The notes beneath the pieces were generated by a model. That model was not told where the DNA came from and ran no database searches. It was given only the letters and a program-made list of their open reading frames with translations. A program made the translations under genes and the position numbers. From an uncultured cyanobacterium (GTDB taxonomy: Bacteria > Cyanobacteriota > Cyanobacteriia > Pseudanabaenales > Pseudanabaenaceae), in contig OY969811.1 of assembly GCA_963703315.1 (NCBI GenBank), forward strand, positions 1,952,001-2,016,000: a stretch of DNA of 64,000 bases, written 5' to 3'. Positions 1-49,531 of this stretch are shown here, in pieces. Position 1 is the first letter of the stretch. Each line of letters starts with the position of its first letter.

Positions 1-382
1 TAGTACCAAGAGTTATCTTGCCGCCTAGGGACTCAAATGACGATAAGAGAAGATTTTGTAAATCTCGTCTTGCCACAGGGTAAGGACGTTGACCGACTTC
101 ATCAATTAAAGGTTGAAGAGGAATTTCATTGAGTAAGTTCCCCGACAAATGGCGGTATTCCATCCGATTCATGATTCCACCGATTGCTGCCATTTTCTCG
201 CCCAAACCAAGACGATTGAGAACTTTAACGCCATTTGACCAAAGCGAAATCCCTGAACCCGTAGGACGCAAATCCCGTACGCGATCGTAAATTTCCACTT
301 CGTAGCCAGACTGTCGCAGCGAGATTCCTGCTGTCAGACCACCGATACCTGCACCGATAATTATTGCTTTTAAACCGTACAC
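1..382 (-). CDS. hpxO: FAD-dependent urate hydroxylase-like monooxygenase (N-terminal part; runs off window start)
   Basis: Not in ORF track. Manual translation from GTG at 382: MYGLKAIIIGAGIGGLTAGISLRQSGYEVEIYDRVRDLRPTGSGISLWSNGVKVLNRLGLG...QRPYPVARRDLQ; GxGxxG FAD motif and close resemblance to the HpxO N-terminus. Confidence 0.8.
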   Translation of the reverse strand, partial: MYGLKAIIIGAGIGGLTAGISLRQSGYEVEIYDRVRDLRPTGSGISLWSNGVKVLNRLGLGEKMAAIGGIMNRMEYRHLSGNLLNEIPLQPLIDEVGQRPYPVARRDLQNLLLSSFESLGGKITLGT

Positions 383-3947: not shown

Positions 3948-4178
3948 ATGGATAGTATGATGTCGGGTCGTTTGAATGATTGGTTGCTATTAGTAGCGGC
4001 GATCGTGGCGGCAATGGTCATATTTGCATCCTTAGCGAAGATTGCGAAATCAGTACTTGTACCATTTGCAGTTGTGGCGATCGCTTTAATTGTGGCAAAG
4101 ATTGCTTTTGGGATTACTCCAGAATATCTTTGGCATGAGTCAATTCATGTGATTAGGAGACTAGGAGCAAGATCCTAA
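3948..4178 (+). CDS. Small membrane protein
   Basis: Two hydrophobic helices; starts 2 nt after the upstream stop. Confidence 0.65.
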   Translation: MDSMMSGRLNDWLLLVAAIVAAMVIFASLAKIAKSVLVPFAVVAIALIVAKIAFGITPEYLWHESIHVIRRLGARS

Positions 4179-4245
4179 AACCTGTGGCGCACGCTGCGCG
4201 TGCGCCACAGGTTTTAGAACTGTTTTTTAATTATGCCGAAGTAAT
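4175..4245. repeat. Palindromic MITE-like repeat (AAACCTGTGGCGCACGC family)
   Basis: Long perfect hairpin; relatives at about 1378-1468, 48140-48236, 49192-49235 and 49755-49842, several with TAAGTAGCT..GC.TAATTAAA-like ends. Confidence 0.7.
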
Positions 4246-4296
4246 TATAGGATGAGAGGTGCTTCGTTCCGACCATCCTATAAAGTTGAAAATCAC

Positions 4297-4986
4297 ATGA
4301 GAATTTTGCTAGTTGAAGATGAAGATGATCTGGGTAAGGCGCTACAACGGAGCTTAAGGCAAGAAAAATATATTGTTGATTGGGTACAGGACGGTGCAGA
4401 AGCATGGAGATATCTTTCAAGTCCTGAAGTAGATTATGTGCTGGCAGTTGTCGATTGGATGTTGCCAAGTTTATCGGGGTTGGAAATATGTAAGCGCTTG
4501 CGATCGCATGGTAATTCGCTGCCAGTGCTAATGCTGACGGCAAAGGATCAGATGCAAGATCGGGTGATGGGTTTAGACTCAGGGGCAGATGATTATCTTG
4601 TTAAGCCGTTTGGGATGGTGGAATTGATGGCGCGGCTGAGAGCGTTGCTACGAAGACCGCCTCAATTTCAGCCCCAAATTTTACAGGTAGGCAATTTGAT
4701 TCTTGATTATGGGAAGTCCACAATTGCGATCGCTAATCAAAATGCGATCGCTGAAGGCATCATGCTGACAACTAAAGAATTTCAGTTGTTAGAATACTTT
4801 ATGCAGCATCCTAATCAGATTCTTACCCGTGACCAGATTATGAATCGGCTATGGGAATTTCAATCCGAACCTGCTAGTAATGTCGTGGCAGCCCAAATTC
4901 GGCTGTTAAGAAAGAAATTAGCAGAATATAGTTGTGATATTGAGATTGAAACAATCTATGGTTTGGGATATCGCTTGAATTCATGA
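4297..4986 (+). CDS. rppA: OmpR-family response regulator, RppA/NrsR type
   Basis: MRILLVEDE, DWMLP phosphoacceptor, GADDYLVKPF, SNVVAAQIRLLRKKL, ETIYGLGYR; next to heavy-metal RND genes. Confidence 0.85.
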   Translation: MRILLVEDEDDLGKALQRSLRQEKYIVDWVQDGAEAWRYLSSPEVDYVLAVVDWMLPSLSGLEICKRLRSHGNSLPVLMLTAKDQMQDRVMGLDSGADDYLVKPFGMVELMARLRALLRRPPQFQPQILQVGNLILDYGKSTIAIANQNAIAEGIMLTTKEFQLLEYFMQHPNQILTRDQIMNRLWEFQSEPASNVVAAQIRLLRKKLAEYSCDIEIETIYGLGYRLNS

Positions 4987-6320
4987 ATCACAATAAAATC
5001 TTTTTGGGAGCGCGGTTACATCTTGCAGGTTGGTATGCAGGCGTGATGGGAATCATTTTGACCCTATCAGGAGTCGGTATTTATCAGGTGATGGCTCATG
5101 CCCATTGGCAAGCAGTCGATCGCGAGTTAGAGTCCGTAGCTGGGACATTGCATGATAGTTTAGAACCTCTACTACAACAAAGCGATCGCATCGATCCGAG
5201 CGTCCAACAAATTCTTCCTAACCTTTGCATCATCGGTGAGAAATGTGAGCAAGAATCTTCCACAAGACATATTATGGGTGCGATCCAACAAGAAAGCTTC
5301 TATGCGTTATTTCTGACTCGTTCTGGAAACTTGATTGCCACAGTCGGAAAACCACCAATGGGAATTGTCCCTCAGATTGGACAAGAAGCTTGGCAAACAA
5401 TTGAGGATCGAGAGGGAAATCGTTATCATCAAATTTCACTTTTACTTAAAAATAATCGTGGGAAATCATGGGGATATCTGCAAGTAGGGCGATCGCTTGC
5501 TGACTATGACCATCATCTTGAGCAATCAAAATTAATATTGATCATTAGTTTACCGATTGTTTTTCTGATTGTGAGCATAGCAAGTTGGTATTTAGCAAGT
5601 ATTGCAATGAAACCAGTTTATTCTTCTTATCAACAAATTCAGCAATTCACCGCCGATGCTGCCCATGAACTGCGGACTCCGCTTGCAGCCATCCGCGCCA
5701 CAGTTGAATCTACTCTTAGTAGTGAGTCAATTTCTGAACTAGAGTCAAGAGATATTTTACAAACAATCAATCGCCAAGCAGTGCGACTTTCAGAACTGGT
5801 GCAAGATTTACTTCTGCTGTCGAGGATGGACTTACAACTAATTACTTTACAAAAGCAAGCTTGTTGTTTGAATGAAATTGTTAGTGATTTAGTTGAAGAA
5901 GTCTCAGCACTTGCCATCCAGTCAGATATTGATCTAAAACTGAACGTTGCCCATGAATCTACAATTTATGTCAATGGTAATCAAGAGCAACTCTATCGAC
6001 TAATTCTAAATATTCTAATCAATGCAATTCATTACACGCCTGAACATGGCAAAGTTGAGGTATCTCTCGATCACATCGAGCATCATGCGATTATCCAAAT
6101 TCAGGATAATGGAATTGGTATAAGTTCCATTGATTTACCCAACATCTTCGATCGCTTCTATCGAGTAAGTAGCGATCGCTCTCGCAAAAAAGGTGGATCT
6201 GGTTTAGGCTTGGCGATCGCACAGGCGATCGTCAAATCTCATAATGGCGATATTCAAGCTAAGAGTGAGATTGAACAAGGTAGTACATTTACAATTAAGA
6301 TGCCATTAATAGCAATATAA
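4983..6320 (+). CDS. rppB: Sensor histidine kinase, RppB/NrsS type
   Basis: Two TM helices, FTADAAHELRTP H-box, N/G1/F/G2 boxes; ATGA overlap with the regulator. Confidence 0.85.
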   Translation: MNHNKIFLGARLHLAGWYAGVMGIILTLSGVGIYQVMAHAHWQAVDRELESVAGTLHDSLEPLLQQSDRIDPSVQQILPNLCIIGEKCEQESSTRHIMGAIQQESFYALFLTRSGNLIATVGKPPMGIVPQIGQEAWQTIEDREGNRYHQISLLLKNNRGKSWGYLQVGRSLADYDHHLEQSKLILIISLPIVFLIVSIASWYLASIAMKPVYSSYQQIQQFTADAAHELRTPLAAIRATVESTLSSESISELESRDILQTINRQAVRLSELVQDLLLLSRMDLQLITLQKQACCLNEIVSDLVEEVSALAIQSDIDLKLNVAHESTIYVNGNQEQLYRLILNILINAIHYTPEHGKVEVSLDHIEHHAIIQIQDNGIGISSIDLPNIFDRFYRVSSDRSRKKGGSGLGLAIAQAIVKSHNGDIQAKSEIEQGSTFTIKMPLIAI

Positions 6321-6472
6321 GTAAGACTTACGCATAAGATTTGCGGGGGGGATTGGCTAGCGATCGCGTCTAAAAATCAACTTTTGATTTTGTGGGTGAC
6401 GATGCAAAATGTTTGCGGGTATAGTTTAAACTTATTTGATTCAGTTAGGCTTGAATTAGGGAGTTTTGCGCG

Positions 6473-9400
6473 ATGGCGACAGGTAAAGAGGAGCAACCGA
6501 TCTGGGTGCAAGACTTGTTGGCTTGGCTGGACAAGATTGAGGCAAAGAAGTTAGAGGGAGAAAAATGGATTGAGCGGGTAAATGAGGTTTTGGCTGAGTT
6601 ACTGCCAGATTTATCAGAACCGTTAAAACAAGATGATCTTAGAGACACTAAAAATGTTTGTGAGGAGTATTCCAGATCGCAAACAATAGCCGATGTCACC
6701 GCTCAAACTTCTGCATCTGATGTAGAACGATTAAAACAGTCTCTTGCAGACGCTCAAAGTATTTATGATGAGTATTCCAGATGGCAAGCAATAGCTGATG
6801 TAGTCGCTCAAATTCCTGAATCCGAGCCAGAACTACTAAAACAAGCTCTTGATGTTGCTCAACGTATTAGTGATGAGTATTGTAGATCAGAAGCGATAGC
6901 CGCCGTAGCCTCTCAAATTCCTGCATCTGAACCAGAACTACTGAAGCAAGCTCTTGAAGCTATTCAACGTATTGATAATGGAAATTACAGATCGCCAGCA
7001 ATAGTCTCTCTAGCCACTCAAATTCCTTCGTCTGAGCTAGAACTACTAAAACAAGCTCTTGAAGCCGCTCAAAGCATTGATAATGAGTATTACAGGTCAC
7101 CAGCAATAGTTGCCGTAGCCACTCAAATTCCTGCATCTGAGCCAGAACTGTTAAAACAAGCTCTTGAAGCCGCTCAAAGCATTGATAATGAGTATTACAG
7201 GTCACCAGCAATAGTTGCCGTAGCCACTCAAATTCCTGAATCTGAGCCAGAACTACTAAAACAATCTCTTGAAGCCGCTCAACGTATTAAAAATGATGAA
7301 TGCAGATGGAAAACTATAGCCATCGCAGCCGCTCAACTTCCTTCATTAGAACGAAAACTAGTTTTACAACAAGCAATTGAATCCACTCAACGTATTTATG
7401 ATGAGTATTCCAAATCGAAAGCAATAGCCGATGTAGCCACTCAAATTCCTGCATCCGAGCCAGAACTGTTAGAAAACGCTCTTAAAGCCGCTCAAAGCAT
7501 TGAGAGTGAGCATTACAGATCGAAAGCGATCGCCGCCGTAGCTGCTCAAATTCCTGCATTGGAAAGAAAATCAGCTTTACAACAAGCCATTGAAGTCGCT
7601 CAACGTATTGAAAATGAGGATTACAGATCACAAGCAATAGCCGCCGTAGCTGCTCAAATTCCTTCGTCTGAGCCAGAACTACTAAAACAAGTCCTTGAAA
7701 ATGCTCAACGTATTGAGTATGAAGATTACAGATCGCAAGCGATAGCTGCCGTAGCCGCTCAAATTCCTTCGTCTGAGCCAGAACTACTAAAACAAGTCCT
7801 TGAAAACGCTCAACGTATTGTCGGCGAGGAATACAGATTGCCAGTAATAGTCGCCGTAGCTACTCAAATTCCTGCATCCGAGCCAGAACTAATAAAACAA
7901 GCTCTTGAAGCTGCTCAACTTATCGAAAATGAGTATTTAAGATCGCCAGCAATAACCGCCATAGCTGCTCAGATTCCTGCATTCGAGCTAGAATTAATAA
8001 AACAAGCTCTTGAAACCGCGCAAACTATTAATGATGAGTATTGTAGAGCGCCAGCAATAGCCGCCGTAGCTGCTCAAATTCCTATATCCAAACGAAAACT
8101 AACTTTACAACAAACGATTAAAGTCGCTCAACATATTGAAAATGAGGATTACAGATCACAAGCAATAGCTACCGTAGTCGCTCAAATTCCTACATCAGAA
8201 CCAGAACTATTAAAACAAACCCTTGAAACTGCCCAAAGTATTGGTGATGAGAATTGCAGATTGTCAGTAATAGCTGCCATAGCTGCTCAAATTCCTGCAT
8301 CCGAGCCAGAGTTACTAAAACAGGCTCTTAAAGCCGCTCAAAGTATTATTGATGTGCAATACAGATGGCAAGCAATAGCCGCCGTAGCCGCCAAAATTCC
8401 TGAGTCCGAGCCAGAACTATTAAAACAAGCTCTTGAAGCCGCTCAAAGTCTTTTCGGCGAGGAATACAAATCGCCAGCAATAGCTGCCGTAGTGGCTCAA
8501 ATTCCTGTATCTGAGCCAGAACTATTAAAACAAGCTCTTGAAGCCGCTCAAAATATTGAGGATAAGCAATATAAAGCGCCAGCAATAGCCGCCGTAGCCT
8601 CTCAACTTTCTCCATCCGAACGAAAATCAGTATTACAACAAGCTATTAAAGTTGCACAAAGTATTGAAGACTATTATTCTGACTCGAAAGGAAGGGCAAT
8701 AGCCGCCGTAGCTGCTCAAATTCCTGTATTCGAACCAGATCTGTTAAAACAAGCCCTTGAAACAGCCCAAAGTATTAGTGATGAATATTTCAGATCAAAA
8801 ACAATAACTGCTGTAGCTGCTCAAATTCCTGAATCCGAGCTAGAACTGTTAAAACAAGCTCTTGAAGCTGCCCAGAGTATTCAAAATAATGATGAATATA
8901 GATCAAAAACAATAACTGCCGTAGCCGCTCAAATTCTTCCATCGCAACGAAAACTAGCCTTACAACAAGCTATTGGAGCCACTAAAAGTATTAGTGATGA
9001 GTATTCCAGATCGAAGGCAATAGCCGCCGTAGTCGCTCAAATTCCTGTATCCGAGCCAGAACTATTACTACAAGCCTTTGAAGCCGCTCAAAATATTGGT
9101 AATGAGAATTACAGATCAGAGGCAATAGCCACCGTAGCCACTCAACTTCCGCCATCCGAACGAAAATCAGCTTTACAAAAAGCTCTTGAAGTTGCTCAAA
9201 ATATTGAGCGTGAGGATTACAGATCGCAAACAATAGCCGTTGTAGCTGCTCGAATTCCTGCGTCCGAGCCAGAACTGTTAAAACAAGCCTTTGAAGCCGC
9301 TCAAAGTCTTGTCGATGAGCAAAACAGATCGCCAGCAATAGCCACCGTAGCTGCTCAAATTCCTGTATCCGAACTAGATCTGCTAAAACAAGCTCTTGAA

Positions 9401-12400
9401 GCTACTCAAAATATTAATCGTGGGTATCATAGATCTGAAGCAATAGCTGCCGTAGTCGCTAAACTTCCGACATCGGAATATCACAAAATAATTGAAATTT
9501 GTTCAAAGCTAGAAAACAAGCAATATCGGATTGAGGCATTAGGAGCTATAGCCTTTAAGGCAACTGAGATGCTAATCGCCCAAACCCCTCAAAATCTAAT
9601 ATCCACGATTTTAGAAATAGTTCCCAACGGTAAAAATTCAGCCGATAAAGCCAAACTTCTTAGCGCTCTTGCTACTCGACTTTCTACAGGGCTTTTTCCC
9701 AGAGCATTACAAATCATCCAAAATGAAATCAACCATCCCACATACCAAGCCGAAACTCTTAGCAATCTTCTCCCCTATTTGCCCCCAGAACAACTTCCAG
9801 AAGCACTCGCAGTAATAACAAGCTTCGCGGGTTACTCTGCTCCCACCACAGCCCTTTGCCAACTTATCCCTAAACTTACTTTTCCCGACCTAGAGTTAGT
9901 CTTCAAGGATTTTATTATTGGAACCACTGAAACAAAGGCACGAATTCCGCAACCAAAACTCCAATATCAAATCCTTAAATGTCTGAATACTTGCCTCAAA
10001 AGCATTCTGGAAAATATTACCGAAATTGACGCAGACCAACATAGCCAAGAGAGACTATCTCAAGAAATCAATGACCACCTTCACCAAATCATTAATGAAT
10101 ACGGGCATCTATTTAGCAAACTCTCATCAGACAATCAAACCGTAACACCTAAATTGATCGCCGAACAAACAAAAATCTTACGAACCATTCGCGAAAATAG
10201 CCGCGACTTCGACAAAGCCAACGCCCTCATTCAAATAACCGCCAGTTTAGATGATTCTCTATCCATCGAAGCGCAAAGTATCGCTCAAGAGATTCAAGAT
10301 GCTTATCATAAAGCACGCGCTCTAGTTTCCCTAGCATCAAGATTTCCTAAAATTCGTAACGAAGCGCAACAACAAGTTAATCAGACTAGAAAAGACGAAA
10401 TCCAACATATCGAACTTCTAAGCCAATTTGCCACCATTGTTCCCGAACAAATTCCCAACCTGCTGAAAAGCGTTGAAGAATGGTCAGGCGCAAATCCCTT
10501 TGAACTTCAAGAAACCACCACCGATCCTGAACGCTGCAAATATAAGCGCCGTCGCATCCTGATCGCCCTCAAGCCCCACCTCCCGATCCGCCTCAGCCGC
10601 GAAATCGATCGCGAAACCAGCATCGGCAAAGCCCCTCAAGACCTCTGGGAAAGATGCCTCTTTGTCCTCCGCAACGAATATCGCCAAGCCCTCAAAAGTG
10701 GCAGTTTCCGTAATGATGCCACTCAAGATGAAGATCTGCTCAACCTCAAAGACGAAATCAATGCCTTAACCGAAATGCTGCTCATGCGCGACCTTACCCC
10801 ACCCGTAGCCGTTGGCATCCTCGGTGGTTGGGGCGGCGGTAAATCTTACATGATGCACCTCATGCAAAAACACATGGTCGAGATTCGCAGTCGTGGACTC
10901 GATCCAGTTGAAGCTTGGGGATTTAAAGATAAGGATGAGGAAAATCCTGATAGCAGTAGGTTGAACCGCTATGTCGGACATATTTACCAAATCAAATTTG
11001 ACGCTTGGACTTATGCCAAATCTAACCTCTGGGCAAGCCTCATGCAGACGATCTTCTTTGAACTAGATCGCCAAATCTCCCTAGAACACCAAATTGATAC
11101 CGCTTTAAAAAGAGCCAATCCCAAAACTACCCCTCTCGATTCACAAAATGGAACGATTTGGCAAGCACTCTATGAAGTCAGTGATGAAGATCGCGAATGG
11201 TTTCTCAAAAATGTACTGACCGATCAGACATTTAATGAATGGGAAAAATTGTCAAAAGAAAACAGTAGTTCTGAAAAACTTTGGGAACTATTTGGTAACT
11301 CTCAAAAAGAAGCGATCGCAGATTTAGAAGCCCTAAAATCAACCCTTCAAGAGACAAAAGAGAATTTACAAAAGAAACCAGTCGAAATTTTGAACGATCA
11401 TGTAAAACGTAAAGCTTTCTTTGATACTGCCAGTCAAAAAGCGATCGCCATCCTTCAAAAACGTTTAGGCAAAAACTTTACTGACGAAATCAAGAAGGAC
11501 TTGGAACAAAAACTTACGAAAATTCAAGATACAACGACCGATCTAAATCAATTTTATGATTTGGTCAAAGATGATATCGAAACAGTATTGGAAAAGAAAG
11601 AGACACAAATCGACATCCAATTTATCAAAGAATTCACAGTCAAAAATTATCTGTTTATTCTCATCTGCCTCTCATTCATTCTTTTAGCCATATTCATCCC
11701 CATTGCTCTTCCCGAATCGATAAAAAACAACTTAGTCGCTCAAATCATTTCCGCAACCACTCCATTAGTCGCTGCAATTCCCTTTGCTAAAACAACAATC
11801 CAAAGAGGTCGCAAACTCTATAATCAAATTAAACTCGAAGTTTCTGACTTCACACACAAATTAGAAAACAATATTCAAAATCAAATTGATACTGATAAAG
11901 ATCTTTTAGCCCTGAAAACAAAAATTACAGAACTTGAGAAGGAAGTAAAAAATAAATCCGCAGATATTCCTACTAACACCTATGCTTCGATCACTGATTT
12001 CGTCAAAGATCGCGTCCAAAAAGGTGGCTATCAAGAACACTTAGGCATGATGCATCAAGTCAAAGAAGACCTATCCATGCTCAGCAAACGCCTCTTACCA
12101 CCACCCGCCGATTCTAAGGAATACGCCACCAAAGTTAAACAACTCGCAGAAGTATTTCCCCGTGGTTCCGCCCGTGTAGTTCTCTACATTGACGACCTCG
12201 ATCGCTGTCCACCCAAAACCGTTGTCGAAGTCCTCGAAGCCGTCCAACTCCTCGTCAAGAATCCGCTTTTTATTGCTGTCTTAGCGATCGACGAGCGCTA
12301 CATCACTCGCGCCCTTGCCGATCATTACAAAGGTGTACTTCCCCTCAAAGGTCGCCCCTCCGCCTCGGACTATCTCGAAAAGATCATTCAAATCCCCTAC

Positions 12401-12979
12401 CGTATTCGCCCCATTTCTGAACAAGCCCTCCGTCAATACCTCCGCGCCCAAATCGTCGTCCAAGATAGTGAAACTAGCGGTACTAAGTTTAATGAATTCT
12501 CCCCTGAAGAATTTAATCTGCTCGTTACCTGTTGCCAAGAATCAGAACTTTCTCCGCGCAGCCTCAAACGTCTCACCAACGTCTATAAACTCTACAAAGT
12601 TCTCAGTCGCACTCGCGGTCAAAAGCCCACACCCAAAGAACAAAAAACAATTCTGACCCTGCTTGCCTTTTCCAGTCGCTACCCTGACCTCATGCGCGAT
12701 ATTCTTCAAAAAATTGGTTCCATCTTCGACCAAAGTCAAAATCCAGATAATGAGAAGGAAACCCTTTTTAATGTATTCAAAACATACCTAGAAAATCCTG
12801 CCAAGAATTCCGCAAATTCATACTTAACAGAAGATGTCAAACAACTCACCTATGACTTTCACAAACTTGTGGATGAGAAATTGGAACTCAATGAAATTAG
12901 AAGTATTTTTGACTTTGTGCGTACTTTCTCCTTTGTCGGTGATATTGGGGTCGATCACACAAACTTAGGAATTGCGTAA
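6473..12979 (+). CDS. 2168-aa protein: about 27 tandem 35/36-aa helical repeats plus a KAP-family P-loop NTPase with inserted TM helices
   Basis: Walker A VGILGGWGGGKS, FDAWTY, hydrophobic insert YLFILICLSFILLAIFIPIAL, Walker B VVLYIDDLDRC, YLEKIIQIPY, SPRSLKRLTN. Confidence 0.85.
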   Translation: MATGKEEQPIWVQDLLAWLDKIEAKKLEGEKWIERVNEVLAELLPDLSEPLKQDDLRDTKNVCEEYSRSQTIADVTAQTSASDVERLKQSLADAQSIYDEYSRWQAIADVVAQIPESEPELLKQALDVAQRISDEYCRSEAIAAVASQIPASEPELLKQALEAIQRIDNGNYRSPAIVSLATQIPSSELELLKQALEAAQSIDNEYYRSPAIVAVATQIPASEPELLKQALEAAQSIDNEYYRSPAIVAVATQIPESEPELLKQSLEAAQRIKNDECRWKTIAIAAAQLPSLERKLVLQQAIESTQRIYDEYSKSKAIADVATQIPASEPELLENALKAAQSIESEHYRSKAIAAVAAQIPALERKSALQQAIEVAQRIENEDYRSQAIAAVAAQIPSSEPELLKQVLENAQRIEYEDYRSQAIAAVAAQIPSSEPELLKQVLENAQRIVGEEYRLPVIVAVATQIPASEPELIKQALEAAQLIENEYLRSPAITAIAAQIPAFELELIKQALETAQTINDEYCRAPAIAAVAAQIPISKRKLTLQQTIKVAQHIENEDYRSQAIATVVAQIPTSEPELLKQTLETAQSIGDENCRLSVIAAIAAQIPASEPELLKQALKAAQSIIDVQYRWQAIAAVAAKIPESEPELLKQALEAAQSLFGEEYKSPAIAAVVAQIPVSEPELLKQALEAAQNIEDKQYKAPAIAAVASQLSPSERKSVLQQAIKVAQSIEDYYSDSKGRAIAAVAAQIPVFEPDLLKQALETAQSISDEYFRSKTITAVAAQIPESELELLKQALEAAQSIQNNDEYRSKTITAVAAQILPSQRKLALQQAIGATKSISDEYSRSKAIAAVVAQIPVSEPELLLQAFEAAQNIGNENYRSEAIATVATQLPPSERKSALQKALEVAQNIEREDYRSQTIAVVAARIPASEPELLKQAFEAAQSLVDEQNRSPAIATVAAQIPVSELDLLKQALEATQNINRGYHRSEAIAAVVAKLPTSEYHKIIEICSKLENKQYRIEALGAIAFKATEMLIAQTPQNLISTILEIVPNGKNSADKAKLLSALATRLSTGLFPRALQIIQNEINHPTYQAETLSNLLPYLPPEQLPEALAVITSFAGYSAPTTALCQLIPKLTFPDLELVFKDFIIGTTETKARIPQPKLQYQILKCLNTCLKSILENITEIDADQHSQERLSQEINDHLHQIINEYGHLFSKLSSDNQTVTPKLIAEQTKILRTIRENSRDFDKANALIQITASLDDSLSIEAQSIAQEIQDAYHKARALVSLASRFPKIRNEAQQQVNQTRKDEIQHIELLSQFATIVPEQIPNLLKSVEEWSGANPFELQETTTDPERCKYKRRRILIALKPHLPIRLSREIDRETSIGKAPQDLWERCLFVLRNEYRQALKSGSFRNDATQDEDLLNLKDEINALTEMLLMRDLTPPVAVGILGGWGGGKSYMMHLMQKHMVEIRSRGLDPVEAWGFKDKDEENPDSSRLNRYVGHIYQIKFDAWTYAKSNLWASLMQTIFFELDRQISLEHQIDTALKRANPKTTPLDSQNGTIWQALYEVSDEDREWFLKNVLTDQTFNEWEKLSKENSSSEKLWELFGNSQKEAIADLEALKSTLQETKENLQKKPVEILNDHVKRKAFFDTASQKAIAILQKRLGKNFTDEIKKDLEQKLTKIQDTTTDLNQFYDLVKDDIETVLEKKETQIDIQFIKEFTVKNYLFILICLSFILLAIFIPIALPESIKNNLVAQIISATTPLVAAIPFAKTTIQRGRKLYNQIKLEVSDFTHKLENNIQNQIDTDKDLLALKTKITELEKEVKNKSADIPTNTYASITDFVKDRVQKGGYQEHLGMMHQVKEDLSMLSKRLLPPPADSKEYATKVKQLAEVFPRGSARVVLYIDDLDRCPPKTVVEVLEAVQLLVKNPLFIAVLAIDERYITRALADHYKGVLPLKGRPSASDYLEKIIQIPYRIRPISEQALRQYLRAQIVVQDSETSGTKFNEFSPEEFNLLVTCCQESELSPRSLKRLTNVYKLYKVLSRTRGQKPTPKEQKTILTLLAFSSRYPDLMRDILQKIGSIFDQSQNPDNEKETLFNVFKTYLENPAKNSANSYLTEDVKQLTYDFHKLVDEKLELNEIRSIFDFVRTFSFVGDIGVDHTNLGIA
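6600..9470 (+). repeat. Intragenic tandem repeat array, 105/108-nt units
   Basis: Unit PASEPELLKQALEAAQSIxxExYRSxAIAAVAAQI, near-identical at DNA level. Confidence 0.9.
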
Positions 12980-13031
12980 AAGAACGAGATGTAGTGACAA
13001 TTCATGAATTACCACTACATCTCGTTCTTTT
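12978..13031. terminator. Long hairpin after the KAP gene, REP-derived (GTAG..CAATTCATGAATT..CTAC core)
   Basis: AAAAGAACGAGATGTAGTG...CACTACATCTCGTTCTTTT. Confidence 0.65.
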
Positions 13032-13065
13032 GTGTCAACGCACAATGGATGTTGGAGTTTTTATA

Positions 13066-13098
13066 TTTCACACCTATTTCATTTTGTTGTGAGATGCT
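13066..13098 (+). promoter_or_regulatory. OmpR-type direct repeat TTTCA-N6-TTTCA plus -10 (GATGCT) upstream of the RND adaptor gene
   Basis: 11-bp period; same geometry at 18441-18473. Confidence 0.55.
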
Positions 13099-13150: not shown

Positions 13151-14707
13151 ATGAGATTATCCCCAAGACTTCACGTTCCCATTATTAAAGTAATTCTTAG
13201 TTTGATTTTACTTTCTAATCCTGCGATCGCCCTTGCTCATGCGGGACATGGCGATGAATTTAAAGGGACTAATACAACTGAAATCACGGGAATTACAGTA
13301 GATGATGAAGTTGCCAAGTCACTGGGAATTAAAGTAGAAACTGTAAAGAAACAGCCCCTAAAATTTGGTATGCAAACCACAGGGCAGATCGAGACTTTGC
13401 CGAACCAACAAGTAAAAGTAACTACTCCGATCAAAGGAACAATTGTTAATTTGCTAGTAGAGCCGGGGGCTTTAGTTCAGGCAGGTCAACCTGTGGCAAT
13501 TCTATCTAGTCCAGAACTAGCGGAGTTACGAGTTAGTTCGCTAGAGAAACAGGCAGAAGCAAGTGGCAATATTCTCAATGCTGAATCAAATTTACGTTTA
13601 GCCCGACAAAATCTTGAACGTCAGAAGCTACTTGTTGAAGCAGATATCCGTCAGGCTCAGACTGAATTAAGTTTAGATAAGGAGCGTTATGAGCGCGACA
13701 AAGAGTTATTAGAGAAAGGGGCGATCGCCCGACGACAATTACAAGAATCAGAATCAAAGTTTGTCGCCGCAAGAGCCGCCTTAACTAAAGCAGAAAGTCG
13801 TTTACCTTTGCTAGAAGCTCAAGCACAATTAGAAAGAGCCGAAGCTGATGTACAAGTATCTGCGACCAGAGTTGAGCTAAGTACTGCCGCTTATGCAGCA
13901 AGATTAAATCAACTAGAAGCTAGTGCAAATTCTAATGGCACGATTACAATTACTGCGCCAATTGATGGAGTTGTCAGCGATCGCGAAGCGACAATTGGCG
14001 AGTCAGTTGATGCCGCAGGAAAGACTTTAATGACGATCGTTAATGATGAAAGAGTTCTCGCCACTGCAAATATTTACGAAAAAGATATAAGTAAAATCCG
14101 TATTGGTCAACCCGTGCAGGTGAAAATTGCAGGACAGCCTTCGACTACAGTTTTTCAAGGCAAGGTGACGGTGATTGGTACTACTGTAGAAGGACAAAGC
14201 CGTATTGTTCCCGTAAAAGCTGAGATTGGTAATGTGAAGAGACAGTTAAAAGCGGGGATGTTTACCAATATCGAAATCCTCACAGATAGTGTGTCTGTGC
14301 CAACCTTAGCGATTCCTGCTGCTTCAGTAGTAGAAGCAAATGGCAAGCAGTTAGTATTTGTGCAGAATGGGAAGTCCTATCAGCCTGTTGATGTGACTTT
14401 GGGAAAGACTTCGGGGGATTTAGTGGAAGTTACAAGCGGATTGTTTGAAGGCGATCGCATTGTTACTCAGCGTGCTAATCAGCTATATGCTCAATCTCTG
14501 CGTGGAGATAATAAGCCCAAGGATGATCATAGTAATGCTATAAAACCTGATGTATCTATCCAAAACAACTGGTGGCTGATGCTTCTAGCAGGAGGTGTTG
14601 GCGGCGGCGCAATTGTGGCGATCGCTTTTTGGTTAGGAAGGCGATCGGGTACAAAAATGGTGATACTGCGGGAGCCTTTAAGTACAAGCGATCACATTGA
14701 TAGATGA
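13151..14707 (+). CDS. Heavy-metal RND efflux periplasmic adaptor subunit (CzcB/NrsB-like)
   Basis: Signal peptide then AHAGHGDEF; lipoyl/barrel motifs, long coiled coil, C-terminal TM. Confidence 0.9.
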   Translation: MRLSPRLHVPIIKVILSLILLSNPAIALAHAGHGDEFKGTNTTEITGITVDDEVAKSLGIKVETVKKQPLKFGMQTTGQIETLPNQQVKVTTPIKGTIVNLLVEPGALVQAGQPVAILSSPELAELRVSSLEKQAEASGNILNAESNLRLARQNLERQKLLVEADIRQAQTELSLDKERYERDKELLEKGAIARRQLQESESKFVAARAALTKAESRLPLLEAQAQLERAEADVQVSATRVELSTAAYAARLNQLEASANSNGTITITAPIDGVVSDREATIGESVDAAGKTLMTIVNDERVLATANIYEKDISKIRIGQPVQVKIAGQPSTTVFQGKVTVIGTTVEGQSRIVPVKAEIGNVKRQLKAGMFTNIEILTDSVSVPTLAIPAASVVEANGKQLVFVQNGKSYQPVDVTLGKTSGDLVEVTSGLFEGDRIVTQRANQLYAQSLRGDNKPKDDHSNAIKPDVSIQNNWWLMLLAGGVGGGAIVAIAFWLGRRSGTKMVILREPLSTSDHIDR

Positions 14708-14757
14708 GCTATTACTATTGTGGCTTCAAAATTTTGATTGACGTATCCTTGCATCAT
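14692..14757 (-). pseudogene. 21-codon remnant resembling the N-terminus of a clan AA aspartic protease gene
   Basis: ATGA-coupled to the upstream ORF; MMQGYVNQNFEATIVIAHLSM*. Confidence 0.45.
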
Positions 14758-15029
14758 AGCTTTTCTTTTAAGCTTCGCGCTCCAAAACGATGAACGGCGC
14801 GATAACCGATTCGGACTACCCAAGTTTGAGAATCGGGAAATCGCTCCCTAAGCTTTTTAGTGGCGGTCATTGTGTCATTAGCAATTTCAAAAGCTCCTGT
14901 TTCGATATCAATAGCTACAATTTTGCCGTGATGATCTGTCTCGACTTGTGGGAGGATTTGAGTCTGATAAATGAGATCGCCACGCTTGGCAAATTCTTCT
15001 TTGCTATATCGAGGTTGACGGACTGCCAT
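14754..15029 (-). CDS. Small conserved hypothetical protein (DUF5678-like; usually paired with an aspartic protease gene)
   Basis: RQPRYSKEEFAKRGDLIY...GKIVAIDIETGAFE...VRIG. Confidence 0.75.
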   Translation of the reverse strand: MAVRQPRYSKEEFAKRGDLIYQTQILPQVETDHHGKIVAIDIETGAFEIANDTMTATKKLRERFPDSQTWVVRIGYRAVHRFGARSLKEKL

Positions 15030-15119
15030 AATTGTTGTTTCTCCGCGATCATTGCCTTATTTAACATATTGTAACTGACCATAAACCGCTCCAAAGCGAT
15101 CGCTGATCAAGCTCATTTT

Positions 15120-15356
15120 CTACCGTGATGACTTGGGTGGAATCTGGACAGATTGAGGTAGTGAACAAGTTGGCGGTTTGGTTTGAGCAGATGGTAAGTA
15201 TGGACTGAAGGAATAAACCAAAACAGGGACTATGATATGGGTTCCGATATAGGTAAGACTTCTCAACAGGCGACGGGGAATCGCAATGTTAATTTTGTCA
15301 TCATTGGGAAGAGGAGAAAGCTCTGAGCCTTTACCAGAAATCGATTTGTTTGACAT
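15120..15356 (-). CDS. Hypothetical small protein with one hydrophobic segment
   Basis: ATG-started 78-aa ORF in otherwise empty space; no recognisable motif. Confidence 0.35.
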   Translation of the reverse strand: MSNKSISGKGSELSPLPNDDKINIAIPRRLLRSLTYIGTHIIVPVLVYSFSPYLPSAQTKPPTCSLPQSVQIPPKSSR

Positions 15357-15632
15357 AATGAACCCATCATTAATATTTGTAGGTGTTGTTGCTTCGGCAC
15401 AGCGCTTTGTTCATAAAAAAGCGCTATTAGATATAAATAGTAGTATATACAATCAATAGATATACTGTCAATACTTATAAAACAATTGTGTTACCTAGTC
15501 TCTGATTTGCTTTTGATGCTTATATCTGGAATTATCCTTGGGATTTTGTGATAAATCTTTTGTTATAAAAGGAGAGCTTGCTTAGTGAAAGTATTTCCTA
15601 AGATAATTTTTCAAAAGCTATTTCAGTAAAAG

Positions 15633-15908
15633 ATGATCGTTAGGAAATTTGAGCAGTTACCAGTAGAAGCAAAGAATATTCTCCTGCAAATCAAGTCAGG
15701 TGTTGCATTTGCTCATAAAAAAGATGGGAGTGTATATCGCAACAGAGAAGGAAAGTTACCAGAACGATCGCCTGATTATTATCGGGAATATACGGTTCTG
15801 ACTCCTGAGATGACAACGAGAGGCTCACGCCGTTTGGTTATTGGTAATGAAGGGGAAATCTACTATACTGATGATCACTATCTGACTTTTCAGAAAATCA
15901 TCGAATAG
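15633..15908 (+). CDS. Guanyl-specific ribonuclease (barnase/RNase Sa family), no signal peptide
   Basis: YRNREGKLP, YYREYTV, RGSRRLV, YYTDDHY catalytic motifs. Confidence 0.85.
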   Translation: MIVRKFEQLPVEAKNILLQIKSGVAFAHKKDGSVYRNREGKLPERSPDYYREYTVLTPEMTTRGSRRLVIGNEGEIYYTDDHYLTFQKIIE

Positions 15909-15909
15909 T

Positions 15910-16329
15910 ATGACTAAGCACATAACCCAGTTACTTCCTGTTAAGCCTTTAGCTGATCGTGATTCTGTGGCGATCGCTAATGGTGCTGATAGTTTACAGA
16001 AGTTAGGAACTGAGATTTTTTATCTTGATGGTCGAGAAATTCGGGATAAGCAGTCTTTTTTGCAGAAAGTCGCTGAGGTGATGCGGTTTCCAGATTATTT
16101 TGGCTATAACTGGGATGCTTTGGAGGAGTGCATTACGGATTTAGATTGGTGTCCTGCGGCGCGATATATTTTGATATACGACTATCCAGAAGCGTTTTCA
16201 AAAGTGGAGCCTGAAGAATGGAAGCTTGCATATGATATTTTGCGATCGGCTGTGGAATATTGGCAGGTAACGGATACGCCTTTGGAGGTTTTGTTAATTG
16301 GTGAAACCGTTACAGATAAAACGTTGTAG
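15910..16329 (+). CDS. Barstar-family RNase inhibitor
   Basis: LDG..I...FPDYFGYNWDALEECITDL; directly follows the RNase gene. Confidence 0.9.
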   Translation: MTKHITQLLPVKPLADRDSVAIANGADSLQKLGTEIFYLDGREIRDKQSFLQKVAEVMRFPDYFGYNWDALEECITDLDWCPAARYILIYDYPEAFSKVEPEEWKLAYDILRSAVEYWQVTDTPLEVLLIGETVTDKTL

Positions 16330-16567
16330 GGGCAAAGCATTCCCGCAGAAATTTATGATTTTACACATCGCTTTAAATCGGGAATGCTCTGCCCAAAACC
16401 TCAAACATTTATCGATAATCTCTAAACCGCACAAAACCTTATGCATTTACCGATAATCTCCAAACCGCAGGGATAATTTATCGGTAAAAGCGAAGAGGGT
16501 TTAGCATTTGTAAATGGAGATTTTAGTGAGGAGTTGAGAGAGGTTGGCGCAAATGCTAAACCCCTAC
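16326..16567. repeat. GTAG-type REP doublet element (REPIN-like)
   Basis: GTAGGGGCAAAGCATTCCC...GGGAATGCT and GGGTTTAGCATTTG...CAAATGCTAAACCCCTAC; sister copy at 28432-28611. Confidence 0.75.
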
Positions 16568-16581
16568 GTTACCTACATTAC

Positions 16582-17517
16582 TTACCTTGTGGCTCTGCGG
16601 GTAGCGAGAATGAAAACCTTGTCGATGCCAATATGAAAGGCAAAGCGAGTGAGGCGATAGAAGGTAATCAGTGAAACGAGACGATGATTCATTCCCTTTG
16701 ATTGCATTCTTGTCCGTGATTCCATCATGTCGCTAATCCAGTGCTGCCATTCATCCCATTCTTCAGGAAAGACTTCAGCTAAACCTTGAGTAATAGCTTC
16801 AACTAAAGTTACATCCCATGCTCTTTGTTTAATTTGAATTTGAGATTTACTATAAGCAATGAGATGATCGGGAATTTCCTCTAAAGATATATTTATACAG
16901 GCTTCTGCAGCAAACTGAAGCATGGAATACCTTATACTAAGAGCGTAATTAACCCTAGCATTTACATAAGTATTAGCCATAGAAATAGCAAACGCATTAG
17001 CAATAGCATATGCAATATTGTTCTTTCTAGGATTAGTCATAGAACGACAAGCTTTAACAAACATTCCGTTAGCATGAGATTTATATTTGACAGCTATAGA
17101 CAATTCTTTAGCATAGGCTTTAGACTTTCTAGTCAAAATTCTAGCAGTCGTATCGTTAGCCTTAGTATCGATAGAAATATCTTCTGCCTCAGTAACTAGA
17201 AATTTTGACTCGCTAGTATAGTTGTTTGTCAACATATCAATAGTTCTTTTTATACCAATAGATTTTAATTTGGCATTTAAAGATCTTGATTTTTTGACAG
17301 CATATTTTGCTTTGGTAACAGCAGCCTTTGTTTTATTCTCTAAAAATTGAAATTCAGATACATCAACATGAGCCTTAGCAACAATACTTGCTCCTATCTC
17401 CTCACTAGCTTGAACCATAGCATTAAGCTCTTCTATAGCATCAAATTTAGCTTTACCCTTAAAAGCCCTAAATCCTAATAAAACCCGAAAGATAGCTATT
17501 GGATTAGTTTGACTCAT
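16582..17517 (-). CDS. Hypothetical protein downstream of padR
   Basis: 311-aa ORF 2 nt after the padR stop; Ala/Lys-rich, AT-rich body; Trp/acidic C-terminal motif FPEEWDEWQHW. Confidence 0.7.
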   Translation of the reverse strand: MSQTNPIAIFRVLLGFRAFKGKAKFDAIEELNAMVQASEEIGASIVAKAHVDVSEFQFLENKTKAAVTKAKYAVKKSRSLNAKLKSIGIKRTIDMLTNNYTSESKFLVTEAEDISIDTKANDTTARILTRKSKAYAKELSIAVKYKSHANGMFVKACRSMTNPRKNNIAYAIANAFAISMANTYVNARVNYALSIRYSMLQFAAEACINISLEEIPDHLIAYSKSQIQIKQRAWDVTLVEAITQGLAEVFPEEWDEWQHWISDMMESRTRMQSKGMNHRLVSLITFYRLTRFAFHIGIDKVFILATRRATR

Positions 17518-17519
17518 CT

Positions 17520-17864
17520 CTAAATCCCCCCGATCGCCATAACAGATCTCAACCCACTCAAAAACACCTCCTTAGCATTAAGAGCGCGATTACCCTCACC
17601 CGCAATCACATAATAACGCCGCCTTGCGCCAGTAAGTTCTTCTGGAGTTTCATCACCCCAACGCGAAGTTACAAAACCCTTTTCCTCAAGCTTTTTCAGC
17701 GTCGGATATAGTGAACTAAACCCGATCTTGCGCTTGCCATCACTAGCTTTAGCGATCGCATCGATAATTTCTAAACCATAACGCTCGCGATCGCGCACCG
17801 CATATAGCACCATCTCTTCAGTGGGCGTAAGGTCTAGGGGATCATCAGACTTTTTGCGTGCCAT
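17520..17864 (-). CDS. PadR-family transcriptional regulator (short subfamily)
   Basis: RYGLEI, SLYPTLKKLEEKGFV, GARRRYY. Confidence 0.9.
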   Translation of the reverse strand: MARKKSDDPLDLTPTEEMVLYAVRDRERYGLEIIDAIAKASDGKRKIGFSSLYPTLKKLEEKGFVTSRWGDETPEELTGARRRYYVIAGEGNRALNAKEVFLSGLRSVMAIGGI

Positions 17865-18017
17865 AACCTAATATACATACAATCTATAACTGATTATACA
17901 TTAATTAGATATATAGTCTATATCATAAAAATATTTTTTGATGCGATCGCTGAGACAATTCGGCAAGGCGATCGCTGAAACAATTAGAAAATTGCAAGTG
18001 ATTTTGTTATATCAACA

Positions 18018-18401
18018 ATGAGTAAAGAAAGGATATTTAATAGTTCTCAGTTTCTTCAGCCAAATGATGATGAGCCTATTCGATCAGTTGTTACCGAATC
18101 CAAAGATGCTGTTGTTGTAGCTTGGTATGTCAACTCGAAGCAAAAGATTGCGCCGCACATTCATCCAAATGGACAAGACACATGGACAGTTTTGAGTGGT
18201 AAAGGTGAATATTATCTGGATGCAACAGGCGGCACTAAACAGATAGTTGCTGGAGACATTGCAGTTGCTCCTCTTGGTTGCGTACATGGAGTATTTAATA
18301 ATGGTGACGAACCATTGATATTTATCTCAGTTGTAACACCTGCTACCGCAGGTTATCAACCTATTCCTTTAGAAAATTCCTCTGATAGTACAGCCTATTG
18401 A
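18018..18401 (+). CDS. Cupin domain protein
   Basis: PHIHPNGQD and P.GCVHGVFN cupin motifs. Confidence 0.85.
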   Translation: MSKERIFNSSQFLQPNDDEPIRSVVTESKDAVVVAWYVNSKQKIAPHIHPNGQDTWTVLSGKGEYYLDATGGTKQIVAGDIAVAPLGCVHGVFNNGDEPLIFISVVTPATAGYQPIPLENSSDSTAY

Positions 18402-18440
18402 GGATTCAAGTATTACAGCACAAAGCACTGTAACTTGGCA

Positions 18441-18473
18441 TTTCATCATGACTTCATAATTCCATGTCATGCT
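18441..18473 (+). promoter_or_regulatory. OmpR-type direct repeat TTTCA-N6-CTTCA plus extended -10 (TGtCATGCT) upstream of the RND permease gene
   Basis: 27-nt offset from first repeat to -10, as at 13066-13098. Confidence 0.55.
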
Positions 18474-18514
18474 AACTTCACTAGCTACTCATCATATTTC
18501 TATTACCTCAAATT

Positions 18515-49270: not shown

Positions 49271-49531
49271 CTAATTATTAGTCCAGTGCCAAGCATCAAC
49301 AGACTTACGGGCGCTATCTGCAAAATCGTTAGCATCGTGACGGACTGGCACTCTAGGATCGCGATCGCTACCATTAGACCAGTACCAAGCATCGATAGAA
49401 TTATGAACGCTATTTGTAAAATCGTCAGTATCATGACGAATTGGCATTCTAGGATCACCAGTTGGATTCCTGACTGATTCTTGAATTTGACCTTTGATAT
49501 CTTTTTCCTTGTCGCTATTTTCTAAACTCAT
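49271..49531 (-). CDS. Diverged CsbD paralog with an internal 32-aa duplication
   Basis: MSLEN...KGQIQESV..PTGD; 96-nt-period repeat at 49280-49360 and 49376-49456. Confidence 0.55.
   Translation of the reverse strand: MSLENSDKEKDIKGQIQESVRNPTGDPRMPIRHDTDDFTNSVHNSIDAWYWSNGSDRDPRVPVRHDANDFADSARKSVDAWHWTNN

Follow-up and report, generated by a model that had tools for sequence, protein, structure and literature searches.

What is the role of a cyanobacterial protein that places a long helical repeat array in front of a KAP P-loop NTPase with predicted membrane anchors, at a site where relatives carry metal-efflux genes? We address this question for a single intact open reading frame (ORF) of 2168 amino acids (aa), at 6473-12979 (+) in a 64,000-nucleotide stretch of contig OY969811.1 from an uncultured member of the Pseudanabaenaceae (assembly GCA_963703315.1, positions 1,952,001 to 2,016,000), hereafter the window. 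This ORF has zero internal stops and is single-copy in the complete 4.57-Mb genome; we refer to it as the repeat-KAP gene. Judged from sequence, its product probably serves as a one-protein immune receptor, in which a membrane KAP ATPase would be coupled to a variable repeat face for a foreign, probably phage, protein. A first-pass annotation of the same DNA had described the array and proposed an NLR-like, recombining sensor on a KAP switch; its observation is confirmed, and its interpretation is partly supported.

The repeat array and its variable columns

Tandem Repeats Finder reports a 105-bp period repeated 26.5 times at 6661-9468 (score 2252, matches 74%). By unit parsing we resolve 26 units over aa 79-997 where about 27 had been counted, with the 35-aa scaffold and the six long variants standing as described. 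Nineteen units are of 35 aa, a single one reaches 36 aa through an insertion in its loop, and the long variants (ERK four times, KRK and QRK) comprise five units of 36 aa and one of 38 aa; partial or degenerate units flank the parsed array on both sides. Nearest-unit DNA identity is 0.76-0.95, mostly 0.80-0.85, and the mean pairwise protein identity between units is 0.60.

AlphaFold, run without an alignment, models the units as helical hairpins (mean predicted local distance difference test score, pLDDT, 79; predicted template-modelling score, pTM, 0.45), with helix A at columns 6-17, a loop at columns 18-21 and helix B at columns 22-33. The five loop motifs quoted by the first-pass annotation are all present in the protein, and the variable patch is indeed formed by this loop and the first turns of helix B, but variability as a whole is spread over about 10 of the 35 columns (3, 15, 18, 20-24, 26, 27, 30, 31). 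The likeness to TAL effectors suggested at the time does not hold, as their variation falls on two adjacent residues rather than about ten columns, and no TAL family match was obtained. On helix B, columns 23, 27 and 30/31 have an i, i+4, i+7/8 spacing that would place them on one helix face by helix periodicity only.

Fold searches with the array match HEAT-type and related solenoids, and HEAT is absent among the 25 Pfam families listed for 33 repeat stretches. Among solved structures, archaeal TON_1535 (PDB 3ZPJ, E 1e-13) matches best by sequence; the alphaRep bGFP-A (PDB 4XL5) aligns structurally with Z 11.1 and a root-mean-square deviation (rmsd) of 4.0 over 245 residues, a Z of 11 being common among helical repeats. 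Matches to CofC, HPT, DUF7938 and Josephin on the repeats (NCBIfam, Pfam) were dismissed as below cut-off or low-complexity.

Domain scans found no separate effector domain in the 2168-aa protein, in agreement with the earlier description. An N-terminal effector domain was specifically rejected: none was recognised in aa 1-78, where no atlas match exceeded 0.76, and the N-terminus aligns with the capping repeat of homologues.

Recombination and turnover of the array

The units recombine (incompatibility test, p=0.0002), and the array turns over far faster than the ATPase, with arrays differing among near-identical KAP cores. In the closest relative (P0002), the KAP halves are 96-97% identical, the stem 48-66% and the array 29%. 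One contig of sequencing run X2 has the gene start and KAP part in common with the window (130 differences in 1659 bases) and not the array. One contig of run X7 jumps over 951 bases net, which corresponds to exactly nine units and keeps the register; the joint is carried by that single contig with 36 bases on its short side, and repeat mis-placement is possible there. Run X1, which matches the window over the pieces shown and may be the source of its sequence, was excluded from this strain comparison. Both the recombining array and its expected variation across strains are thus found as the first-pass annotation proposed.

Mutagenesis by a diversity-generating retroelement, of which KAP proteins have been mentioned as targets (PMC10907252), was rejected: adenines vary no more than other bases, and the complete genome has no RVT_1 match.

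Family-level diversifying selection on the loop and the start of helix B

DNA was available for 14 other arrays, and the 12 of these with at least eight units were used for codon tests, which relied on in-house codon code and a profile-based loop alignment of partly related arrays. Model M1a was rejected at p<0.05 in 9 of the 12; column 23 was singled out in 10 arrays and column 27 in 8. With all 12 pooled, columns 21 and 23 survive correction for 35 columns, and columns 3, 22 and 27 are nominally significant. When the synonymous rate (dS) was left free, the patch as defined in the window (20-24, 26, 27) gave a dS of 0.7 and a nonsynonymous rate (dN) of 2.0 across the 12 arrays, with a likelihood-ratio test statistic (LRT) of 52.7, and five exposed helix-A columns had dN < dS, a sign of purifying selection. 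None of 26 pooled nulls simulated with a neutral fast loop and recombination reached the observed LRT (maximum 12.3). These codon patterns identify diversifying selection at the family level on the loop and the start of helix B. A further 'preset' column test (21, 23, 27) in the 12 arrays was discarded as circular and is not used as evidence.

The KAP ATPase and its clade

The match to Pfam KAP_NTPase (111.8 bits against a cut-off of 20) assigns the gene product to the KAP P-loop NTPase family. Walker A (aa 1451-1458) and Walker B (aa 1905-1912) are both intact, and a 450-aa insert bears a predicted transmembrane hairpin; the two hydrophobic segments between the Walker motifs lie at aa 1727-1745 (hydropathy 3.06) and aa 1754-1772 (1.71, weaker). 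By the same kind of prediction, hydrophobic segments between these motifs number at least one in 117 of 117 scored homologues and at least two in 85 of the 117. A helical linker leading to a membrane-anchored KAP NTPase had been described from the outset, and it is recovered here, except that the linker holds degenerate repeat copies.

A search with the KAP half returned 274 proteins, and 117 of 120 of these entered the tree (FastTree, midpoint root), three without a motif being omitted. A single branch with support 100 unites 58 repeat-bearing proteins and two without detected repeats, and one further repeat-bearing protein (P0116) falls among non-repeat KAP clades. The remaining members carry WD40 (43), TIR, caspase, trypsin-VMAP, nSTAND1 or AAA_35 modules N-terminal to the same KAP. 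Across this sequence comparison the ATPase is the constant part of the family. In four proteins (P0065, P0066, P0073 and P0095), nSTAND1, in one case together with a caspase, is fused directly to the membrane KAP module, giving two P-loop domains per chain. The KAP half itself has no sequence match among solved structures and no match among phage records, and an AlphaFold model of aa 997-2168 made without an alignment was discarded (pLDDT 42).

The repeat in NLR-like proteins

A profile of the repeat unit matched 4097 representatives. Sorted by a crude motif rule, the best 150 comprise 112 proteins with a P-loop-like motif ahead of the repeats, 13 repeat-KAP proteins and 25 that are neither. 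Pfam, applied to 31 of the best 150, identified NB-ARC, NACHT or NPHP3_N in 17, KAP in three, only trypsin or AAA_16 in three and nothing relevant in eight; trypsin, caspase and EAD4 domains occur at N-termini among these 31, and one protein (P0123) has the order EAD4, NB-ARC, then repeats. Column variability in 12 P-loop-first arrays follows that in 14 KAP arrays (Spearman 0.78) and that in this gene (Spearman 0.58-0.60). From the domain matches and the shared variable columns we therefore regard the array as the repeat tail of NLR-like proteins, mounted on the other end of another NTPase. The repeat is, on these matches, of a superstructure-forming type also used in the C-terminal tails of NLR-like STAND proteins, and the NLR-like character proposed by the first-pass annotation is supported by this homology. 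A CHAT-protease protein (P0127) also has a related repeat tail, with no NTPase listed.

Genomic setting

At 14 loci with the upstream kinase in genus relatives, the KAP gene is present in none; the efflux gene comes no more than about 100 bases later in four, other small genes lie between in seven, and the efflux gene is outside the stretch in three. The genes intervening at those seven loci are presumably metal-regulon genes, which they resemble by sequence. The linker is clearly present in one of 47 other genus genomes, and a second genus genome has a contig that ends in a close KAP fragment. Set against these relatives, the repeat-KAP gene reads as a rare insertion among metal-efflux genes, and on the same comparison a defence hotspot here was rejected. 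The features of the gene and its surroundings are collected in Table 1.

Table 1. Features of the repeat-KAP gene and its immediate surroundings (positions in the window)
Feature	Position	Strand	Basis or remark
Complete 2168-aa ORF: array of repeats, stem of degenerate units and membrane KAP NTPase (predicted anchors)	6473..12979	+	
N-terminal segment, aa 1-78, modified capping repeat	6473..6706	+	aligned to homologues' first repeat; low pLDDT
Homogenised array, 26 helical-hairpin units, aa 79-997	6707..9463	+	unit parsing, Tandem Repeats Finder, AlphaFold, fold search
Span containing the six long-variant units	7337..9253	+	unit parsing
Long-variant units	7337-7444, 7550-7657, 8078-8185, 8606-8719, 8933-9040, 9146-9253	+	
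Helical stem, aa 998-1410, with degenerate repeat units inside; identity to close homologues 48-66%	9464..10702	+	
KAP NTPase N-half; Walker A 10823-10846, conserved FDAW motif 10997-11008	10703..11152	+	
Variable helical insert within the NTPase; predicted transmembrane hairpin ~11651-11707 and ~11732-11788	11153..11962	+	hydropathy scan
KAP NTPase C-half; Walker B 12185-12208, conserved downstream motifs 12371-12397 and 12551-12574	11963..12652	+	
C-terminal region, aa 2061-2168, clade-conserved, without recognised domain	12653..12979	+	
Extent of the insertion relative to kin (in kin: kinase, then efflux gene almost directly)	6305..13064	.	
Palindrome abutting the KAP stop codon; perhaps a terminator or a small repeat element	12980..13029	.	
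Response regulator and histidine kinase; flanking context, outside the system	4252..6320	+	
CusB/HlyD-type membrane-fusion protein of the metal-efflux locus; flanking context	13151..14707	+	

Around homologous genes, we scanned 112 of 115 neighbours at 25 loci, three duplicates having been removed. The few mobile or conflict neighbours comprise YhcG/PDC-S02, HigB, a caspase-like protein, type V-K TnsB/TnsC/TniQ and insertion sequence (IS) genes, and 3 of 21 genome loci are broken, one via an IS605 element. At one locus (L060:1-8293) the repeat-KAP gene adjoins type V-K TnsB, TnsC and TniQ, and may be transposon cargo. By gene content, the clearest defence context among the homologous loci is that of plasmid pCC7120alpha in Nostoc PCC 7120. 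At this one locus, the homologue WP_010999687.1 (2297 aa), which has the same architecture and 34% identity, is found close to a full-length match to PifA, a type IV nuclease (Mrr) and an NB-ARC/WD40 gene. The cluster (L092:755-15281) consists of a PifA-like KAP, the Mrr nuclease, a 137-aa unknown, the repeat-KAP gene and the NB-ARC/WD40 gene, and is likely a defence island of this laboratory strain.

These neighbourhoods bear on whether the protein acts alone. It might be a sensor or adaptor only, whose arm binds the trigger and whose KAP switch signals to a separately encoded effector such as a TIR, caspase or NLR-like protein. The lack of an effector domain in the protein, the TIR, caspase or trypsin effectors fused to sister KAP proteins and the NB-ARC/WD40 gene next to the PCC 7120 homologue fit such a role, for which Kidins220/ARMS, a scaffold of signalling in animals, offers a parallel. 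We nevertheless consider it unlikely: no conserved partner gene occurs at the 25 homologous loci, and the gene arrived alone at this site.

Several observations concern the loci themselves. At two of them, the repeat-KAP gene is closely preceded by an unknown ORF of 227 aa (L016:4127-4810 and L018:7080-7763). On one contig (L018/L032), a MACPF-jacalin ORF and a peptidase M15 ORF lie between two repeat-KAP genes, one of which is frameshifted. Another repeat-KAP locus (L017), with 74% identity over the query region, belongs to a Rhizobium-labelled bin, a label that is probably a binning error.

In the window, a direct-repeat box at 13065-13090, just upstream of the efflux gene and conserved in relatives, marks the right end of the insertion; we take it to resemble a metal-responsive regulator site. 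The palindrome that follows the KAP stop codon has a core with a single occurrence in the window, and a promoter-like site at 6396-6425 was dismissed as a chance-level match. A second variable stretch, at 14708-18514, splits the efflux genes, where the corresponding gap is only about 2 kb in two relatives; it contains barstar together with a barnase-like ribonuclease (15633-16329), a PadR regulator whose 311-aa partner is of an unknown kind (16582-17864), a cupin and an ORF of 91 aa. In four sequencing runs, many contigs stop at 4175-4237 at high depth, a pattern that suggests a short repeated element ahead of the response regulator. Finally, a 96-bp unit occurs twice at 49277-49456, in a stretch without a long ORF.

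Proposed mechanism and its rivals

We propose that the predicted hairpin would leave both arm and ATPase in the cytoplasm, where the solenoid arm could bind a foreign protein through its helix-B face. Several copies may assemble at the membrane, with the KAP hub oligomerising, and binding by the arm would switch on or raise ATP turnover. The ATPase-membrane hub might then be the effector itself, with ATP drain or ion loss halting infection as reported for Tmn, and repeat shuffling together with point change could retune recognition. By analogy, we infer that the best model is Tmn, with the membrane NTPase itself acting as the effector.

Several lines of evidence favour a one-protein immune receptor. 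The KAP core is 96-97% identical to that of P0002 and the array 29%, the repeat is kin to NLR-like tails, M2a is preferred to M1a in this gene and in 9 of 12 other arrays, and pooled selection acts on the variable patch. The distribution is patchy (linker clearly found in 1 of 47 other genus genomes, 3 of 21 loci broken); one homologue has the pCC7120alpha setting and another the transposon neighbours at L060. The modules of sister KAP clades are WD40, TIR, caspase, trypsin-VMAP or nSTAND1, and Tmn and EF_KAP provide precedents.

Other results weigh against an immune receptor. None of the 10 window neighbours matches PADLOC, and this metal-efflux locus is not a defence island such as the first-pass annotation had asked about; the 112 neighbours from the homologous loci are mostly housekeeping genes. 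PADLOC and NCBIfam match the generic KAP part only, far under the QatA cut-off; domain order is reversed relative to Tmn and NLRs; and the 12 arrays tested for selection are partly kin. For this gene alone, the overall dN/dS is about 0.6, and model M2a is preferred to M1a (LRT 14-16, p~0.001) with omega 1.8-2.0 on one third of columns, a value of 16.2 being reached in none of 54 simulated nulls with or without recombination (maximum 14.8). A neutral loop evolving at twice the rate, however, reaches this gene's LRT in 5 of 20 simulations, and with a free synonymous rate its variable patch has a raised dS of 1.4 against a dN of 2.0 (p=0.08). The raised patch dS and the five neutral fast-loop runs therefore make the single-gene selection evidence indecisive: positive selection and relaxed constraint are not told apart in this gene once synonymous rates vary by site. 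The per-position dN/dS check suggested at the outset accordingly yields diversifying selection for the family but not for this gene taken singly.

In a further rival, the arm is structural and its exposed loop drifts under relaxed constraint, with slippage and gene conversion homogenising the scaffold; the gene would be a largely neutral passenger or have a housekeeping role as a scaffold. This gene taken alone, which is indistinguishable from a neutral fast loop, the housekeeping neighbourhoods and the 3 of 12 other arrays without signal would all suit drift. We give drift little weight, as pooled dN exceeds dS at the same columns beyond the simulated nulls and with dS not raised, conservation holds at exposed helix-A columns, the ATPase has kept its motifs intact and the repeat is common to NLR-like proteins.

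The nature of the ligand raises a different rival, in which the same sensor-switch design detects non-phage intruders or non-kin cells by way of plasmid or conjugation proteins, competitor toxins or filament allorecognition. Fungal receptors with such repeats serve allorecognition according to one study (PMC4986451), phage restriction is perhaps not the main function of PifA according to another (PMC13552941), and one repeat-KAP homologue lies on a conjugative plasmid. A non-phage target seems rather improbable, since the tested bacterial relatives (Tmn, EF_KAP and the Avs families) respond to phage and nothing here points to a non-phage ligand.

Returning to the one-protein receptor, we offer a wider proposal more tentatively. 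The cyanobacterial KAP clade may constitute an NLR-independent modular immune platform, in which an NLR-like recombining sensor sits on the opposite end and is coupled to a membrane ATPase effector, its specificity being rewritten unit by unit.

Comparison with known systems

On its domain content and order, the gene product is not an NLR, a Tmn or a TALE. Tmn is the closest in logic: its solenoid arm binds phage T2 RIIB, and its decamer drives ATP turnover and Mg export (PMC13001434). Both are one polypeptide with two transmembrane helices in the P-loop domain (predicted here) and a long HEAT/ARM-like solenoid arm, and both are stand-alone genes with no separate effector. In Tmn, however, the NTPase comes first and the arm last, with repeats undetectable in sequence and conserved in number, whereas the present protein has its arm at the N-terminus, with internal homogenisation and a varying number of units, and its NTPase is of the KAP rather than the YobI type. 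The YobI family did not appear in the Pfam scan of the protein, nor the Tmn model in the PADLOC scan.

Among KAP proteins of defence, EF_KAP protects against phage and needs both Walker B and its fused region, and PifA, QatA and EF_KAP have the KAP NTPase domain in common with the present protein, their fused regions being C-terminal and non-repetitive as described (PMC13552941). The QatA match is of 83 bits against a cut-off of 600, the PifA match is partial, and no QatBCD partners occur among the neighbours. NLR-like STAND proteins, which include the Avs families and cyanobacterial effector-NB-ARC/NACHT-repeat proteins such as P0123, P0138 and P0151, have the same repeat family and variable columns in a C-terminal tail. 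In this protein, by contrast, only KAP was found, the repeats precede it in reversed order, a membrane anchor is predicted and there is no N-terminal effector. Kidins220/ARMS shares the order, with repeats at the N-terminus and a KAP NTPase inserted in the membrane after them; its repeats are ankyrin repeats, and it is a conserved neuronal scaffold that is not known to have diversifying repeats.

Fungal NLRs with internally conserved WD40, TPR or ANK repeats are described as having concerted repeat evolution, number polymorphism and positive selection at few positions (PMC4986451). Recombination, repeat-number polymorphism and family-level positive selection at specific positions are shared with the present array, whereas the repeat and the NTPase differ, selection is weaker in this gene, and its units, mostly at 0.80-0.85 DNA identity, fall short of the fungal-type level of >85% internal identity over at least 100 aa. 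TON_1535 and alphaRep are without an NTPase. In the alphaRep binder library, positions 18, 19, 22, 23, 26 and 30 were randomised on the concave face (PMC3754942), and their spacing equals that of columns 22, 23, 26, 27, 30 and 34 in an assumed register that sequence comparison did not confirm.

KAP ATPases with repeats are known in general, according to the Tmn preprint citing the 2004 KAP-defining paper (PMC13001434), and that paper may already list such repeat-KAP architectures. In fungi, repeats of high internal conservation are known to diversify what immune receptors recognise (PMC4986451); for bacterial receptors this is only suggested in a 2020 preprint (10.1101/2020.01.06.895854), PMC13581612 does not mention KAP, and we found no description of this repeat-KAP clade in a literature search that lay outside subscription journals and supplements. 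The codon tests support repeat-based diversification in a bacterial repeat family whose backbone is non-STAND. If our reading is true, NLR sensor logic and the membrane-effector logic of Tmn would be joined, in reversed order, in one protein; a candidate for anti-phage immunity in cyanobacteria would be testable in Nostoc PCC 7120 (WP_010999687.1); and engineered HEAT binders would have a natural counterpart in this repeat.

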